Source: Escherichia phage ST2. Taken from it: 64,000 bases of DNA. Each line of letters opens with the position of its first letter. Position 1 is the first letter of the stretch. Location: sequence record OM982647; one strand, written 5' to 3'. Positions 1 to 39,242 of this stretch are shown here, piece by piece. The notes under the pieces were generated by a model. The model did no database searches. It saw only the letters and a list, made by a program, of their open reading frames with translations, and had not been told where the DNA came from. Position numbers and translations under genes: made by a program.

Positions 1-1461
1 ATAAGCTCTAAGTTAGACAGATTAGCTACATTATTAGAGCAAAAATTACAAACATCTACCGCTATTCAAAATACAGGAGGCACCTCTCTTGAAGTAATTG
101 AGAACGCAATACCTGTTAAAGTGGTTGAGAACGAAACTTCTGATGAGTTGTTTAAAGCATTACCTACACCTGAAAAGATTGATAATAAGCCAGACGAAGA
201 TTTCTTCCCGGTCCCGGTTCAAGAAAGTGCTAATTCTACTTCCGATTCTAAAAGCGGAATTAGCTTTAAATTGAGCGATAAAATTGCAATGCTCACCAAA
301 ACAGTTCAAACCGGGTTTAATAAATCAATATCAATTTCAGACAGAATTGCTGGAATGCTTTTCAAATACACTATAACGGCCGCTATTGAAGCAGCAAAAA
401 TGGCCGCACTTATTCTTGGTATTGTTATCGGTATTGATTTATTGATAGTCCATTTCAAATATTGGACAGACAAGTTCACTTCTGCTTGGGATTTATTTGA
501 TGAAAACTTTACTAAATTCTCCGATGAAGCTAAAGAGTGGGGTAAATTCTTAAGTGATATATTCACTTCTATTGACTCGATAAAACAATTATGGGAAGCT
601 GGAGACTGGGGTGGTTTAACCGTTGCTATTGTCAAAGGTGTAGGAACAGCATTAATGAACTTAGGTGAACTAATTCAATTAGGAATGGCTAAACTCTCCG
701 CGTCTATATTGCGTGCTATAGGTTTTGGTGATACTGCGGACGAAATAGAAGGACGTGCTTTGGAAGGATTCCAAGAAACTACTGGGAACAAATTAAAGAA
801 AGAAGACCAAGAGAAAGTCGCTAAATATCAAATGAAGCGTGACGATGGGGAATTAGGAACCGTTTCTAAAGGTCTTGATATGTTACAGCGCGGCAAAACA
901 TTCGTTACTAACTGGGTTCGTGGTAATGACAATAAAGAAGAGTTTAGTACAAGCGATGAGCGTGCTGCGGAATCAGCAAAATTAAAAGAGTTACCTGAAG
1001 AGGAGCGTAAAGAAGCGTATATAAAAGCTAATGAAACTCGTGCGGCACTTGTTAGATTTGAGGATTATATCGATAAAATCGATATGACTAATCCGGAAAA
1101 TGCTAAAAACGTCGAGAAGTCTTATGCTGATTTAAGTAAACTTATTAAAGACCCTGAACTTAATAAAACTCCTGTTGTTAAAAAGGAATTAGATGCTAGA
1201 TTTGAAAAGCTAAATAATAAAATGGCTGAAGCCAAAAAGGCTCAGACAACAGTTAAGCCTGAATCTTCGTCTAAATCTCCGGAAGCAAAACAAGTTCAGT
1301 CAATAGAGAAAGGACGTGCTTCTGAATCTAAACAACAGCAACCGGTAGCGGCGATTAGTAACACAAATAATGTCGTCAAAAAGAATACCGTAGTCCAGAA
1401 TATGACCCCTGTAACAAGTACAACGGCTCCTGGAATTTTCCATGCCACCGGTGTTAATTAA
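1..1461 (+). CDS. 29: Baseplate hub / tail-length determinator, 3' portion (reading frame open from window edge)
   Basis: Frame open from nt 1 with no stop; hydrophobic segment plus coiled-coil-rich C-terminus; order 29-48-54 as in T4. Confidence 0.55.
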   Translation: MSSKLDRLATLLEQKLQTSTAIQNTGGTSLEVIENAIPVKVVENETSDELFKALPTPEKIDNKPDEDFFPVPVQESANSTSDSKSGISFKLSDKIAMLTKTVQTGFNKSISISDRIAGMLFKYTITAAIEAAKMAALILGIVIGIDLLIVHFKYWTDKFTSAWDLFDENFTKFSDEAKEWGKFLSDIFTSIDSIKQLWEAGDWGGLTVAIVKGVGTALMNLGELIQLGMAKLSASILRAIGFGDTADEIEGRALEGFQETTGNKLKKEDQEKVAKYQMKRDDGELGTVSKGLDMLQRGKTFVTNWVRGNDNKEEFSTSDERAAESAKLKELPEEERKEAYIKANETRAALVRFEDYIDKIDMTNPENAKNVEKSYADLSKLIKDPELNKTPVVKKELDARFEKLNNKMAEAKKAQTTVKPESSSKSPEAKQVQSIEKGRASESKQQQPVAAISNTNNVVKKNTVVQNMTPVTSTTAPGIFHATGVN

Positions 1462-28745: not shown

Positions 28746-28753
28746 TATAAATA
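28746..28753 (+). promoter_or_regulatory. Late promoter TATAAATA for gene 34
   Basis: Exact TATAAATA 35 nt upstream of ATG, SD AAGAGGA. Confidence 0.6.
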
Positions 28754-32629: not shown

Positions 32630-33754
32630 ATGGAAAAATTTATGGCAAGGTTTGGACAGGGATACGTCCAAACGCCGTTTTTATCGGAAAGCAATTCAGT
32701 TAGATTTAAGCTAAGTATAGCGGGTTCATGCCCGCTTTCAACAACTAATCCGTATATTTTGTTCCAAAACGAGCCTTTAGGGTTGCAGTCTTTTGGTATT
32801 GGACTAAATGTTAGGGTGATAAATCCGGAAAATGGAACTATAGTTGATAGTAAATTATACAATTTTGCGCCTACAAATAATGCAACTTCGGCCGCGTTTA
32901 TTTCGTTTGTTAATACATACGCGGATAATTTCATTTTCGCATTTATTTCTAATAACAAATTTAATTTGCCGCCAGAAATAATTGAATGGTTTAAAGCTGC
33001 TGGGAGTTCAGTTATACCGTCAATTGAAGTTGCTAGTCTTGTTGATATTTCATATTCAGCGTTTTATGTTTCAGGTAAAAATACTATTGCATTAGAACAC
33101 ATAAAATACAGTAATAAGAAAACAATTTCTGATTACGCAACTCCATTAGATATTGTATATGACTCTATTGCTGATATAGGTGCTACCGGCTATCCTAGAC
33201 GTACATATGAAGCTTTAGAAACGTTTTTATCTCCTATTGGAGAAACTAACAATGAAATAAAAAGGATGCCTACATCATCCCTTGTTACTCCTATCGCAAA
33301 CTATGGATTAAAGCCTACAGATTTTCTTTATTTGAAATTTCAATTAATGGCTGATGAAGAATTATTAGAGGAAGGAACCACAAGACTTTCAATTCGTTTC
33401 TTTAAGTCTCCATCTAGCTCTCCTATATCATCTAAAGATATAAACTTTGATGGAACTGCCGGGGAGTGGAAGCTATATGAAGAATACGTTGAAATACCAG
33501 CTGAAGCTGATGGCTTTACAGTATATTGTTACCGTACGGCCTCAGTCGGTCAAGGTGGACTAAGAAATGTTATTTTCACTGAAGTATCATGTAACGGAAG
33601 TATAGCAAAACCCGCCGAGTTTGGTATAAACGGTATTCGTGTTAATTACATTGATGAATCATTAACCGGTAATGATATAATGGACTTGCCTACTCAGTTA
33701 TCTAACGACACAGGTAAGGTATTTGGGCAGGAATTTAAAGAGTACACAGAATAA
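32630..33754 (+). CDS. 35: Long tail fiber hinge connector
   Basis: 374 aa (T4 372); position. Confidence 0.75.
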   Translation: MEKFMARFGQGYVQTPFLSESNSVRFKLSIAGSCPLSTTNPYILFQNEPLGLQSFGIGLNVRVINPENGTIVDSKLYNFAPTNNATSAAFISFVNTYADNFIFAFISNNKFNLPPEIIEWFKAAGSSVIPSIEVASLVDISYSAFYVSGKNTIALEHIKYSNKKTISDYATPLDIVYDSIADIGATGYPRRTYEALETFLSPIGETNNEIKRMPTSSLVTPIANYGLKPTDFLYLKFQLMADEELLEEGTTRLSIRFFKSPSSSPISSKDINFDGTAGEWKLYEEYVEIPAEADGFTVYCYRTASVGQGGLRNVIFTEVSCNGSIAKPAEFGINGIRVNYIDESLTGNDIMDLPTQLSNDTGKVFGQEFKEYTE

Positions 33755-33779: not shown

Positions 33780-33787
33780 TATAAATA
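33780..33787 (+). promoter_or_regulatory. Late promoter TATAAATA for gene 36
   Basis: Exact TATAAATA 27 nt upstream of ATG, SD AAGGAGA. Confidence 0.6.
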
Positions 33788-34478: not shown

Positions 34479-37400
34479 ATGGCTACTTTAAAACAAATAC
34501 AATTTAAAAGAAGCAAAACTGCAGGAGCACGTCCTGCCGCTTCAGTATTAGCCGAAGGTGAATTGGCTATAAACTTAAAAGACCGTGTACTTTTTACTAA
34601 AGATGACCAAGGAAATATTATTGATCTGGGTTTTGCTAAAGGCGGTAGTATTGACGGGAATGTTATTCATACAGGCAATTATAACCAAACTGGCGATTAT
34701 ACTTTAAATGGGGTCTTCACTCAGACTGGTAATTTTAATTTAACCGGTATTGCTCGAGTAACTCGTGATATTATTGCCGCTGGGCAGATTATGACTGAAG
34801 GCGGAGAACTTATTACAAAAAGTTCGGGTACAGCGCATGTTCGTTTTTTCGATGGCAATAGTCGCGAACGTGGAATCATTTATGCCCCGGCTAATGATGG
34901 ATTAACTACACAAGTACTTAATATCAGGGTTCAAGACTACGCCGCTGGTAGCGAAAGCACTTATGCATTTTCAGGCAGTGGCCTATTTACTTCACCTGAA
35001 GTATCAGCATGGAAATCTATGTCAACTCCTCAGATTTTGACTGACAAAGTCATTACAGACGGGAAGAAGACAGGCGATTATGATATCTATTCATTATCAA
35101 ATAACACTCCAATGGCAGAAGGCGAAACGGCTATTAACCACCTCCGTGTTATGCGAAATGCTGTAGGAGCAGGTATTTTCCACGAAGTTAATGTTAATGA
35201 CGGAATAACCTGGTATTCCGGAGATGGACTTGACACTTATCTTTGGTCGTTTAACTGGGCCGGTGGATTGAAAGCCGGTCATTCTATTTCTGTAGGTCTT
35301 CCAGGCGGCCCCAAAGGATATTCTGAATTAGGAACGGCCTCAATTGTTCTTGGGGATAATGATACCGGGCTAAAATGGCATCAGGACGGATATTTCTATA
35401 CAGTAAACAACGGAACAAAAACTTTCATCTATGGTCCAGGAGAAACGCAAAGCCTTAGAAAAATGGTTATGGCTTATTCTCCAGATGGGCTTCTTATGAC
35501 AACGCCGCCGACAGAAAACTATGCTTTGGCTACTGTTGTTACTTACCATGATAATAATGCGTATGGTGACGGTCAAACTCTTTTAGGATATTATCAAGGT
35601 GGTAATTATCATCATTATTTCCGCGGCAAGGGTACCACAAACATTAATACTCATGGCGGTTTGTTAGTTACTCCAGGTAATATTGATGTTATTGGCGGTT
35701 CTGTTAATATAGATGGTAGAAATAATTCTTCTACACTAATGTTTAGAGGCAACACAACAGGATACAGCTCGGTTGATAATATGGATATTAAAGTTTGGGG
35801 TAATACGTTTGTTGATCCAAGCGGAGGTATCCGTAAAAACATTATGGAAATTTCTGATGCAACTAGCTGGATGAGCTATATTCAAAGACTTACTACTGGC
35901 GAAGTAGAAATGAACGTTAATGGTTCATTTGAATCATCTGGTGTTACTGCTGGAGATAGAGGAGTTCACACAACAGGTGAAATTTCATCTGGAGCAGTGA
36001 ATGCTCTTCGTATTTGGAACGCAGATTATGGAGCCATTTTTAGACGTTCAGAAGGAAGTCTTCATATTATTCCAACTGCTTATGGCGAAGGCAAAGATGG
36101 CGATATCGGTCCACTTCGCCCGTTTAGTATGGCTTTAGATACCGGTAAAGTTACTATTCCAGATTTACAATCAAGTTACAATACGTTCGCTGCGAACGGC
36201 TATATTAAATTTGTTGGCCATGGTGCAGGCGCAGGTGGATATGATATTCAATATGCCCAAGCGGCTCCTATTTTCCAAGAAATTGATGATGCTGAGGTAA
36301 GCAAATATTATCCTATTGTTAAGCAGAAATTTTTACAAGGAAAAGCAGTTTGGTCTTTAGGTACTGAAATTAATTCAGGTACATTCGTGATACACCATAT
36401 CAAAGAAGACGGGACTCAAGCTCATACATCAAGATTTAATGCTGACGGTACAGTTAATTTCCCTGATAATGTTCAGGTTGGTGGCGGTGAAGCTACTATT
36501 GCTCGAAATGGTAATATCTTCTCCAACATTTGGAACGTATTTACCTCTGCTGGTGATATAACCAACATTCATGATGCCATTGCCTCCCGTGTGGCTAAAG
36601 AAGGCGACACGATGACAGGTAAGTTGAGTATTAATGCCCCAGACGATGCTTTAGTATTAAATGCTCCTAGTGCAACTAACTCATCTCATATTCGTTCGAC
36701 TGTCGCTGGAGCAAATAGCTGGTTCATAGGTAAAGGTGGAGTGTCAGACACCGTATCTTTTTATAACTATAAGTCCCAGACAGGTATAGATATATCAGCA
36801 GAAGGTAATATTTCATTTAACCCACAATCGGGTAACCTGGTCAGCATGAGCCAGAACCGTATGTATGTTAACGGCGAAAGATGGGTGGCCACAAACCAAG
36901 GTGCAATTAATGTGCAATACGGCGTTGAAGCTCCAGTATTTGTTAACTTAGGCGAGTTAAATGGTAACGTATACTATCCATTGATAAAGGGTCGAAGCTC
37001 TTCCACCGGATATGGTTACCTAAGTAGTGTTGAGCTTGGCCAATTACGTACAGGTGACAATAACTGGGGTATTGGTTGTATAATTGTTCGCTCGGCTGAA
37101 AATACACCAGAACAAGGACATCCGGCAGCAGTATACCAGTTTGACGCTAGAGGTAACTTTAGTGCTCCAGCCGGGGTTTATTCGAACGTTAATATGGGCA
37201 TTGGCACTATTCCTGTATGGGGTGGTCCATCTCTTGCAATCGGCGACAATGATACTGGATTTGTATGGGAAGCAGACGGTATTTTCAACGCATATGCAAA
37301 CGGCCAAGGTGTGTTTAGTTTTAGACCTGGTTTAGCTCAGACATTCGGTAATGTTAACTTCCACTGTAATGCAGGTATGTATGTTCGTGATAACATTGAT

Positions 37401-37742
37401 GTTAACGACGTTTATATTCGTTCTGATATTCGTTGTAAGTCGGAAATTAAGCTTATTAAGAACGCTCAAGAGAAATCTAAACTATTGGGCGGTTATACTT
37501 ATCTGCTTAAAAACTCTGTTACAGACGAAGTTAAACCGTCCGCAGGTTTAATTGCTCAGGAAGTTCAAGAAGTATTACCTGAACTTGTTTCTGAAGATAA
37601 AGAGACCGGACTGCTTCGTTTGAACTATAACGGTATTATTGGTTTAAATACAGCTGCAATAAACGAGCATACAGATGAAATCAAGGAATTGAAATCTGAA
37701 ATTACCGAATTGAAAGCATTAATTAAATCATTGATAAAATAA
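34479..37742 (+). CDS. 37: Long tail fiber distal subunit with C-terminal intramolecular-chaperone-like domain
   Basis: 1087 aa; C-terminal ~105 aa carries SDIRCK and GLIAQEVQEVLPELV motifs typical of auto-cleaving chaperone domains. Confidence 0.8.
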   Translation: MATLKQIQFKRSKTAGARPAASVLAEGELAINLKDRVLFTKDDQGNIIDLGFAKGGSIDGNVIHTGNYNQTGDYTLNGVFTQTGNFNLTGIARVTRDIIAAGQIMTEGGELITKSSGTAHVRFFDGNSRERGIIYAPANDGLTTQVLNIRVQDYAAGSESTYAFSGSGLFTSPEVSAWKSMSTPQILTDKVITDGKKTGDYDIYSLSNNTPMAEGETAINHLRVMRNAVGAGIFHEVNVNDGITWYSGDGLDTYLWSFNWAGGLKAGHSISVGLPGGPKGYSELGTASIVLGDNDTGLKWHQDGYFYTVNNGTKTFIYGPGETQSLRKMVMAYSPDGLLMTTPPTENYALATVVTYHDNNAYGDGQTLLGYYQGGNYHHYFRGKGTTNINTHGGLLVTPGNIDVIGGSVNIDGRNNSSTLMFRGNTTGYSSVDNMDIKVWGNTFVDPSGGIRKNIMEISDATSWMSYIQRLTTGEVEMNVNGSFESSGVTAGDRGVHTTGEISSGAVNALRIWNADYGAIFRRSEGSLHIIPTAYGEGKDGDIGPLRPFSMALDTGKVTIPDLQSSYNTFAANGYIKFVGHGAGAGGYDIQYAQAAPIFQEIDDAEVSKYYPIVKQKFLQGKAVWSLGTEINSGTFVIHHIKEDGTQAHTSRFNADGTVNFPDNVQVGGGEATIARNGNIFSNIWNVFTSAGDITNIHDAIASRVAKEGDTMTGKLSINAPDDALVLNAPSATNSSHIRSTVAGANSWFIGKGGVSDTVSFYNYKSQTGIDISAEGNISFNPQSGNLVSMSQNRMYVNGERWVATNQGAINVQYGVEAPVFVNLGELNGNVYYPLIKGRSSSTGYGYLSSVELGQLRTGDNNWGIGCIIVRSAENTPEQGHPAAVYQFDARGNFSAPAGVYSNVNMGIGTIPVWGGPSLAIGDNDTGFVWEADGIFNAYANGQGVFSFRPGLAQTFGNVNFHCNAGMYVRDNIDVNDVYIRSDIRCKSEIKLIKNAQEKSKLLGGYTYLLKNSVTDEVKPSAGLIAQEVQEVLPELVSEDKETGLLRLNYNGIIGLNTAAINEHTDEIKELKSEITELKALIKSLIK

Positions 37743-37747
37743 TAAAA

Positions 37748-37761
37748 GGGCCTTCGGGCCC
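37748..37761 (+). terminator. UUCG hairpin (no U-run; likely mRNA-stabilising stem-loop)
   Basis: GGGCC-TTCG-GGCCC immediately after gene 37 stop. Confidence 0.4.
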
Positions 37762-37772
37762 TGGAGGTTTAT

Positions 37773-38552
37773 ATGGCAGTAGTAGGAATCCCTGGTTGGA
37801 TTGGGACCTCAGCCGTTGCTGAAACGGGTCAAAGATGGATGACGGCTGCTTCAAGGGAACTTCGTTTAGGAAACCCTTCATGGATGTCCCAATTCGCGGG
37901 CCGTTCAAGAGAAATAATTCATACACTTGGTGCAGACCATAACTTTAACGGACAATGGTTCCGAGATAGATGTTTTGAGGCAGGTAGTACACCTATAGTG
38001 TTTAATATCACTGGAGATTTAGTATCATATTCTAAAGATGTTCCTTTATTCTTCATGTACGGAGATACACCGAATGAATATGTTCAGTTGAATATACACG
38101 GCGTAACGATGTATGGACGTGGGGGTAATGGCGGTAGCAATAGTCCTGGCTCAGCTGGAGGTCATTGTATTCAAAACGATATTGGTGGGAGACTAAGAAT
38201 TAATAATGGTGGAGCTATTGCAGGCGGCGGTGGCGGCGGTGGCGGCGGTATATATGGCAGACTATCATTTGGTGGTGGCGGTGGTCGTCCATTTGGTGCT
38301 GGTGGGTCTTCCTCTCATATGGGTGCTGGTGCAACCGCTGGCACCATTTCCGCTCCGGGTGCAGGATCTGTCGGTGAGGGGTCTCTTTGGGTATATACAG
38401 GCGGGAATGGCGGCGAAGTTGGCTCTGCAGGAGGAAGATGTAATATTCATGGTAACGGCACAGAATATAACGGCGGCGGTGCTGGTTATGCTGTTATAGG
38501 GTCTGCTCCAACGTGGATAAATGTTGGAGCAATATATGGTCCAAGAGTATAA
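37773..38552 (+). CDS. 38: T2-type receptor-recognising adhesin gp38
   Basis: 259 aa; N-terminus [15 protein letters not shown]...; C-terminal poly-Gly motifs separated by variable segments. Confidence 0.8.
38223..38249 (+). repeat. Perfect (GGCGGCGGT)x3 tandem repeat encoding Gly9 within gene 38
   Basis: 27 bp exact triplication. Confidence 0.8.
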
Positions 38553-38582
38553 TTTGAATAAATATCCTTAAAAGGAGGTATT

Positions 38583-39242
38583 ATGGCAACACCAAAAGTG
38601 TCATTTTCGCCTAGTGATATTCTATTTGGGTTGCTAGATCGTATTTTCAAAGATAACGCTACTGGAAAGGTTTTAATGTCTCGAGTAGCGGTAATTATTC
38701 TTTTGTTCCTAATGGCACTAATATGGTACAAAGGAAGTATTTTGCTGGATTATTATGTAAGAGCTAAGTATGATACTTATACTGAAATAATCCAAAAAGA
38801 ACGAGCTTTACGTTTTGAATCTGCGGCTCTAGAACAACTGCAAATAGTTCATATCTCATCTGGTGCAGATTTTAGTGCTGTGTATTCTTTCAGACCTAAA
38901 AACTTAAATTATTTCGTCGACCTTATAGCTTATGAAGGCAAACTACCTAGCACAATTTCTGAAAAGTCCCTTGGCGGATTCCCGGTGGATAAAACGGCTA
39001 ATGAATATATAATTCATTTAAGTGGCCGTCATTTCTCATCTAAATCAGAATTTGCATTTTTGCCTACAAAATCTAAGACCGCCGAACTTTCTTATATGTA
39101 TAGTTGCCCATACTTTAATTTGGATAACATCTACGCTGGAACTGTGACGATGTATTGGTATAAGGGGAATAATATACTTGAGGAGGAACGCTTAGCGGCT
39201 ATATGCAACCAAGCGGTCCGAATACTAGGAAGGGCTAAATAA
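38583..39242 (+). CDS. t: Holin
   Basis: 219 aa; MATPKVSFSPSDILFGLLDRIFKDNATGKVLMSRVAVIILLF... as T4 T; single TM then periplasmic domain. Confidence 0.9.
   Translation: MATPKVSFSPSDILFGLLDRIFKDNATGKVLMSRVAVIILLFLMALIWYKGSILLDYYVRAKYDTYTEIIQKERALRFESAALEQLQIVHISSGADFSAVYSFRPKNLNYFVDLIAYEGKLPSTISEKSLGGFPVDKTANEYIIHLSGRHFSSKSEFAFLPTKSKTAELSYMYSCPYFNLDNIYAGTVTMYWYKGNNILEEERLAAICNQAVRILGRAK

Follow-up and report, generated by a model that had tools for sequence, protein, structure and literature searches.

In bacteriophage T4, the product of gene 38 (gp38) is a tail-fiber assembly chaperone and not an adhesin. The T2-type gp38 proteins, in contrast, are receptor-recognizing adhesins, among which the S16 protein is docked on the gp37 trimer by three tryptophans (PMC6851490), and the structure of PP01 gp38 was used to define five distal loops, of which loop B is needed for adsorption and loop E is the key contact with OmpC (PMC12892980). 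The modular behavior of gp38, and the scheme of glycine-rich motifs (GRMs) and hypervariable segments (HVSs) that we follow here, are those of Trojet et al. (2011). OmpA was identified as the receptor of phage IME340 by sequencing of resistant mutants, ompA deletion, adsorption assays and complementation (PMC6499177), and as that of EV240 by RB-TnSeq; when a Tsx phage was given the EV240 gp38 sequence starting at HVS2, it switched to OmpA (bioRxiv 10.64898/2026.04.02.716166). The adhesins of FL12, FL18 and FL20 are OmpA-dependent and classified as "type 2" (PMC12032242), and the receptor of Bas47 is OmpF (PMC8594841). Single HVS substitutions may change the receptor, as in RB68, where Q206L switches recognition from OmpF to OmpW (bioRxiv 10.64898/2026.04.02.716166), and PST, with three changes relative to T6, illustrates dual Tsx/OmpA use arising from few HVS changes (Trojet et al. 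2011).

Here we analyze gene 38 in a 64,000-nucleotide stretch of phage DNA (hereafter the window). Its product is a typical T2-type gp38 and probably forms, as a monomer, the cap by which the long tail fiber binds the receptor; the phage is a Mosigvirus and apparently Escherichia phage ST2.

Identity of the protein and its relatives in public sequences

The protein is identical to GenBank UUB18368.1, annotated as "hypothetical protein" in the 171,086-bp record of Escherichia phage ST2, and the literature search found no usable paper on this phage. In a phage collection that does not include ST2, the closest genomes over 24 kb belong to Mosigvirus, with AlbertHofmann/Bas47 first (about 96%), and the best full-length gp38 is that of BF15 (QXN75949.1; 95.4% amino acid and 92.2% nucleotide identity). 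A public protein with a T6-type N-terminus, P0131, is identical to gp38 over residues 51-259, and in public sequences the specificity domain also occurs in combination with other N-terminal docking modules, of which there are at least four. A reading of the DNA from its letters only (hereafter the sequence-only reading) had pointed to the variable segments as the likeliest place for strain-specific novelty; the ST2 deposit, the identity with P0131 and the 97.3% identity of the specificity domain to that of IME340 leave little room for it. The protein is deposited, and how the family is built, exchanges its modules and selects receptors has been published; gp38 is thus already known. Many close homologs (P0015, P0018 and P0024 among others) bear the names of bacteria such as Escherichia coli, Shigella sonnei and even Bacillus cereus, presumably because phage contigs were included in bacterial assemblies.

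Gene context and features of the locus

Within the window, the open reading frame listing contains a single ATG-started frame with exactly the bounds of g38 (259 codons plus stop), which begins 30 nt past the g37 stop codon (37740-37742), and the gene order is canonical, namely gp36 (Pfam Phage_T4_gp36), gp37, gp38 and the t holin (Table 1). Two alternative-frame open reading frames within g38 (38206-38499 on the plus strand and 38265-38450 on the minus strand) were dismissed as by-products of the GGN-rich coding sequence.

Table 1. Features of the g37-g38-t region, with residue numbers of gp38 unless indicated otherwise; entropies are mean column values
Feature	Residues	Position in the window	Strand	Evidence or remark
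g37, distal long-tail-fiber subunit, trimeric shaft predicted to bear gp38	1087 aa	34479..37742	+	Pfam gp37_trimer, Gp34_trimer, Peptidase_S74
gp37 tip and C-terminal intramolecular chaperone region	914-1087 of gp37	37218..37739	+	phmmer against 6f45_A, E = 1.2e-31
Peptidase_S74 intramolecular chaperone domain of gp37	982-1037 of gp37	37422..37589	+	PF13884, 8.3e-12
Hairpin AGGGCC-TTCG-GGCCCT (TTCG loop) in the 30-nt g37-g38 spacer, abutting the g38 ribosome-binding site		37747..37762	+	sequence
Shine-Dalgarno GGAGG, 5 nt 5' of the g38 ATG		37763..37767	+	read from sequence
g38, T2-type receptor-recognizing adhesin	1-259	37773..38552	+	Pfam, PDB sequence matches, predicted fold
N-terminal gp37-attachment domain (W9, W22, W37)	1-46	37773..37910	+	Pfam Gp38_N, aa 1-42
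First part of the beta-helix domain	47-114	37911..38114	+	model strands, pLDDT > 90
GRM1, GRGGNGG	115-121	38115..38135	+	0.29 bits
HVS1, start corresponding to PP01 distal loop A	122-150	38136..38222	+	0.73 bits
Distal loop A, SNSPG	~122-126			alignment with PP01
GRM2, nine glycines	151-159	38223..38249	+	perfect (GGCGGCGGT)x3 tandem repeat
HVS2 / distal loop B, IYGRLSF	160-166	38250..38270	+	1.92 bits
GRM3	167-178	38271..38306	+	0.32 bits
HVS3, distal loops C and D	179-209	38307..38399	+	1.48 bits
Distal loop C, SSSHMGA	~179-185			alignment with PP01
Distal loop D, in HVS3	~199-209			alignment with PP01
GRM4	210-221	38400..38435	+	0.98 bits
HVS4 / distal loop E	222-233	38436..38471	+	1.85 bits
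GRM5, GGGAG	234-238	38472..38486	+	0.61 bits
Conserved C-terminal strands closing the beta-helix	239-259	38487..38549	+	alignment, model
Gene t (holin), downstream of g38		38583..39242	+	Pfam Phage_holin_T, 4.9e-92

The hairpin in the g37-g38 spacer is GC-rich, identical in PhAPEC2 and BF15, and terminator-like on the minus strand. It appears in the minimum-free-energy fold, but its folding energy is no better than that of shuffled sequences (z = -1.0), and we make no claim of a regulatory role. Boxes resembling T4-type late promoters (TATAAATA) lie on the plus strand at 28746-28753 and 33780-33787, upstream of g34 and g36; the window contains no more of these eight-base matches than chance would give. 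Their placement would fit co-transcription of g36, g37 and g38, and since no such box was found in the window directly upstream of g38, this gene may be read from the g36 promoter.

Elsewhere in the tail-fiber region, residues 58-131 of gp35, the proximal hinge connector (32630-33754), match the Pfam family ILEI (PF15711, "interleukin-like EMT inducer") with 30.2 bits against a cut-off of 27 (E = 6.4e-7). An apparent ILEI domain is unexpected in a phage fiber protein.

A T2-type adhesin

Two Pfam families, and no others, match the protein: GP38 (PF05268, "phage tail fibre adhesin"; 6e-68, 229.4 bits, cut-off 25), which covers residues 47-259 and all of the profile (positions 1-218 of 218), and Gp38_N (PF21721; 6e-21, 74.6 bits, cut-off 25), which covers residues 1-42. 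A sequence search of the PDB returned only the receptor-binding domain of PP01 gp38 (9V85, 3.3e-77) and S16 gp38 (6F45 chain D, 1.3e-53). An AlphaFold2 model built from 61 homologs has a mean pLDDT of 87.6, with values above 90 from about residue 51 through 259; the N-terminal 45 residues are of low confidence (pLDDT 41-72), as is expected because gp37 is absent from the model. Foldseek places the model on 9v85_C (E = 1.5e-25, target-normalized TM-score 0.88, rmsd 2.1 Å) and 6f45_D (E = 2.4e-21), with no further match in the PDB (next E > 3). The predicted fold is a beta-helix with a polyglycine-II (PGII) sandwich. The PP01 receptor-binding domain and the S16 gp37-gp38 tip (6F45) have the same three-domain architecture, PGII sandwich and order of GRMs as the protein described here, to which PP01 and S16 gp38 are 64-66% and 44% identical, respectively. 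They differ from it in the length and sequence of the distal loops, and both recognize OmpC, whereas another receptor is predicted here.

The sequence-only reading had proposed a T2-type gp38 adhesin, and the Pfam matches, the PDB sequence matches and the predicted fold all favor this assignment. The competing notion, that the product of g38 merely assists the assembly of gp37 as in T4 and that receptor recognition resides in gp37, draws on the gene name and the position after g37, which are common to both kinds of protein, and on nothing in the sequence. An alignment to the chaperone, named in that reading as the finding that would overturn its proposal, did not emerge: the similarity to T4 gp38 (NP_049864.1) is undetectable, the best BLASTP alignment having E = 1.0 over 16 residues. 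In addition, the Pfam matches are confined to adhesin families, the fold is that of the adhesins, and gp37 ends in an S16-type tip followed by an S74 chaperone domain, not in the receptor-binding needle tip of the T4 type, so that the chaperone interpretation is effectively refuted. [quoted passage not shown]

Alternation of conserved glycine-rich motifs and variable segments

Glycine accounts for 53 of the 146 residues in the specificity domain (aa 114-259; 36%) as against 12 of 113 in the preceding part of gp38, and its runs include nine residues at 151-159, five at 167-171 and several GG and GGG. In the alignment of 61 family sequences, GRM1-3 have mean column entropies of 0.29-0.33 bits, GRM4 of 0.98 and GRM5 of 0.61, whereas HVS2, HVS3 and HVS4, with 1.92, 1.48 and 1.85 bits, respectively, carry indels. 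This contrast indicates that the alternation is real and family-wide, and not a chance effect of composition. The sequence-only reading had described the gene after g37 as one in which glycine runs alternate with variable C-terminal segments, and the reading frame, the composition and the alignment agree with that description. The alignment was also the proposed way to delimit the hypervariable segments; it bears out HVS2-4 as variable but not HVS1, which varies only mildly (0.73 bits) and is not hypervariable within the subgroup to which gp38 belongs.

The five distal loops were placed on gp38 by sequence alignment with PP01 (Table 1). The columns of W9, W22 and W37 in the N-terminal domain are invariant or nearly so across the family alignments. 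The counterpart of GRM2 in S16 is PGII helix 3, 151-GGGGGGGG-158 (PMC6851490). At the DNA level, the GRM2 tandem repeat is a potential substrate for slippage or recombination inside the adhesin gene.

Mosaic origin of g38

The DNA of g36, g37, the spacer and nucleotides 1-153 of g38 is 99.1-100% identical to that of the Mosigvirus PhAPEC2 (99.4% for g37), and this match runs to position 37952 with a single discordant site at 37928. Positions 37953-38122 are 100% identical to the Tequatrovirus IME340. Comparison of the mismatch maps for PhAPEC2 and IME340 therefore places the 5' junction at approximately 37953-37963 (codons 61-64), at the conserved start of the beta-helix. Past the junction, the identity of g38 to PhAPEC2 falls to about 50%, and the gene resembles IME340 or BF15 in patches, with 100% DNA identity to IME340 at 38304-38408 and to BF15 at 38496-38571. 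Gene t is 80% identical to its counterpart in PhAPEC2 and 73% to those in IME340 and BF15, and over the first ~100 nt it shares about 90% identity with Bas47, which implies that t is of yet another origin and that at least three parental lineages are represented within 6 kb. These identities indicate that g38 is a natural chimera of a PhAPEC2-like Mosigvirus 5' part and a Tequatrovirus OmpA-type module: g36, g37, the spacer and g38 up to codon 61-64 or so would derive from the former, and the remainder of g38, including all GRMs and HVSs, from the latter.

PhAPEC2 and AlbertHofmann/Bas47 share the genomic backbone of the phage analyzed here, whereas their gp38 specificity domains are only 46-50% identical to its own and of another HVS type; this is the swapped segment. 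Residues 1-50 of gp38 are identical in Bas47, BF15 and PhAPEC2, and relative to Bas47 and BF15 the first 50 codons of g38 contain 18 synonymous and no non-synonymous changes, suggestive of very strong purifying selection on the gp37-docking module across diverged alleles. Two apparent peculiarities of the region disappeared on comparison with PhAPEC2. The synonymous-only divergence at the 5' end is nothing unusual but simply another Mosigvirus allele, given that positions 37773-37925 are 100% identical in DNA to PhAPEC2 and PHB12; likewise, the segment of g37 at 36450-37260, which is only 35-60% identical to BF15, IME340 and Bas47 and seemed novel, is 99.9% identical to PhAPEC2.

Predicted receptor

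The specificity domain is most similar to those of phages with proven OmpA dependence (Table 2), and there are no indels in the HVSs relative to IME340, EV240, FL12 or FL20. On the strength of this near-identity, OmpA is predicted, with good confidence, to be the primary receptor.

Table 2. Amino acid identity between the gp38 specificity domain (aa 114-259) and those of other phages
Phage	Identity	Receptor
IME340	97.3% (I160N, G236A, A245T, I249Q; 4 of 146 differ)	OmpA
EV240	91.1%	OmpA
FL12	91.1%	OmpA
FL20	87.0%	OmpA
FL18	84.2%	OmpA
T6 / RB3-like	78-80%	Tsx
M1	67%	
FL08 / AV119	52%	OmpA "type 1"
Bas47	47%	OmpF

The gp38 of IME340 (AWD91689.1, from a Tequatrovirus) is likewise 259 residues long, agrees with the protein described here throughout residues 51-113 and in loops A, C, D and E, and has HVSs of the same lengths. 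Beyond the N-terminus, the two proteins differ only at the four positions given in Table 2, of which I160 (N160 in IME340), in loop B, is the only loop residue that distinguishes gp38 from this OmpA-binding adhesin. The N-terminal attachment domain, which here is of the PhAPEC2/Mosigvirus type, differs by 10 substitutions, and the 3' end of IME340 g37 is only about 40-50% identical in DNA, the N-terminus of gp38 here fitting a different gp37 tip. Conversely, BF15 gp38 is identical in the N-terminal domain, and 11 residues of its specificity domain are replaced, some of them in loops B, D and E, where it is of the "SLSAYT" subtype of EV240 and FL12. The type 2 adhesins of EV240, FL12, FL20 and FL18 (Lutz et al. 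2025), whose specificity domains are 84-91% identical to that of gp38, share its HVS lengths and motif set, and gp38 also has R172, A189 and A253, the residues given as contacts with OmpA in FL20. These four adhesins differ from gp38 in loop B (NRGRL(S/V/I)F as opposed to IYGRLSF), in loop D (S-A as opposed to W206-V207, which is characteristic of the IME340 subtype) and in loop E (T as opposed to I225). EV240 and the FL phages have other residues at the positions of W206/V207, Y161 and I225, and the OmpA prediction therefore rests mainly on the comparison with IME340.

The OmpA type 2 group adjoins the Tsx group, and gp38 shares HVS1, all GRMs and much of HVS4 with the Tsx-type adhesins, in addition to the 78-80% identity of its C-terminal domain to T6 and RB3-like proteins. 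Recognition of Tsx, or of Tsx together with OmpA, as in T6, RB3 and PST, could thus be considered in place of OmpA alone, the more so as PST attained dual specificity by few HVS changes. However, HVS2 of gp38 lacks 5 residues relative to the Tsx-type YYSPFxQMRLTF, HVS3 contains a 4-residue insertion (GEGSLW) that is absent from Tsx binders, and the experimentally characterized relatives closest to gp38 (91-97%), all of them dependent on OmpA, are far nearer to it than the Tsx binders, which makes an involvement of Tsx very unlikely.

A different question is raised by I160. This residue opens distal loop B, the loop that PP01 needs for adsorption (PMC12892980), and I, N, R, V and S are found at this position among close relatives; single-residue receptor switches are documented (bioRxiv 10.64898/2026.04.02.716166), and gp38 variants read different combinations of OmpA loops (Lutz et al.). 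The rare I160, with G236, might accordingly retune gp38 to an outer-membrane protein other than OmpA, or to certain of the OmpA loop alleles that occur in wild E. coli, resulting in a host range unlike that of IME340. Against this, every other loop residue equals that of IME340, and I160 occurs with at least two different N-terminal modules (in P0123 and P0131), so that it belongs to an allele in circulation and is not peculiar to this phage; moreover, tuning to an allele would still keep OmpA as the receptor. We consider such retuning unlikely. Also unlikely is the broader scenario in which a recent swap between Mosigvirus and Tequatrovirus moved the receptor from a Bas47-like one (OmpF-type) to OmpA, with I160 possibly retuning the choice of allele or receptor further. 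Primary recognition of OmpA, as in IME340, is the reading that we adopt in the model below.

A tentative model of the fiber tip

Residues 914-1087 of gp37 are homologous to the fragment of S16 gp37 that was crystallized with gp38, and the S74 domain opens with SDIRCK (Ser982...Lys987), which has the Ser-Lys spacing of the autocleavage dyad. Autocleavage near Ser982 would be expected from general knowledge of S74 domains, with the site placed by motif only. Based on the structural work on S16 and PP01 and on classical T2/T6 genetics, we propose that gp37 trimerizes with the help of its own C-terminal S74 chaperone domain, which would then cut itself off near Ser982. One gp38 monomer would cap the exposed tip of the gp37 trimer, to which it would attach by W9, W22 and W37 in its N-terminal three-helix domain. 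The remainder of gp38 is envisaged as a beta-helix, two excursions of which, made of the GRMs, would form a three-layer PGII lattice, so that the five distal loops, corresponding to the HVSs, point at the cell and are presented to the extracellular loops of OmpA. Reversible binding to these loops would lead to deployment of the short tail fibers and then to contraction of the sheath.

Implications

The principle is reportedly covered by the work of Tetart, Trojet and Krisch, of Dunne et al. and of Lutz et al. and by the 2026 receptor-prediction preprint, and the locus adds none. It is a clean natural example of the known movement of specificity domains between genera, in which the docking module at the N-terminus continues to fit the recipient's own gp37. 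UUB18368.1 can be confidently annotated as a gp38 receptor-recognizing adhesin instead of a "hypothetical protein". If I160 does change specificity, it would be another single-residue switch of receptor or allele in gp38. The prediction of OmpA from sequence may be useful for cocktail design and for foreseeing resistance through loss of ompA.
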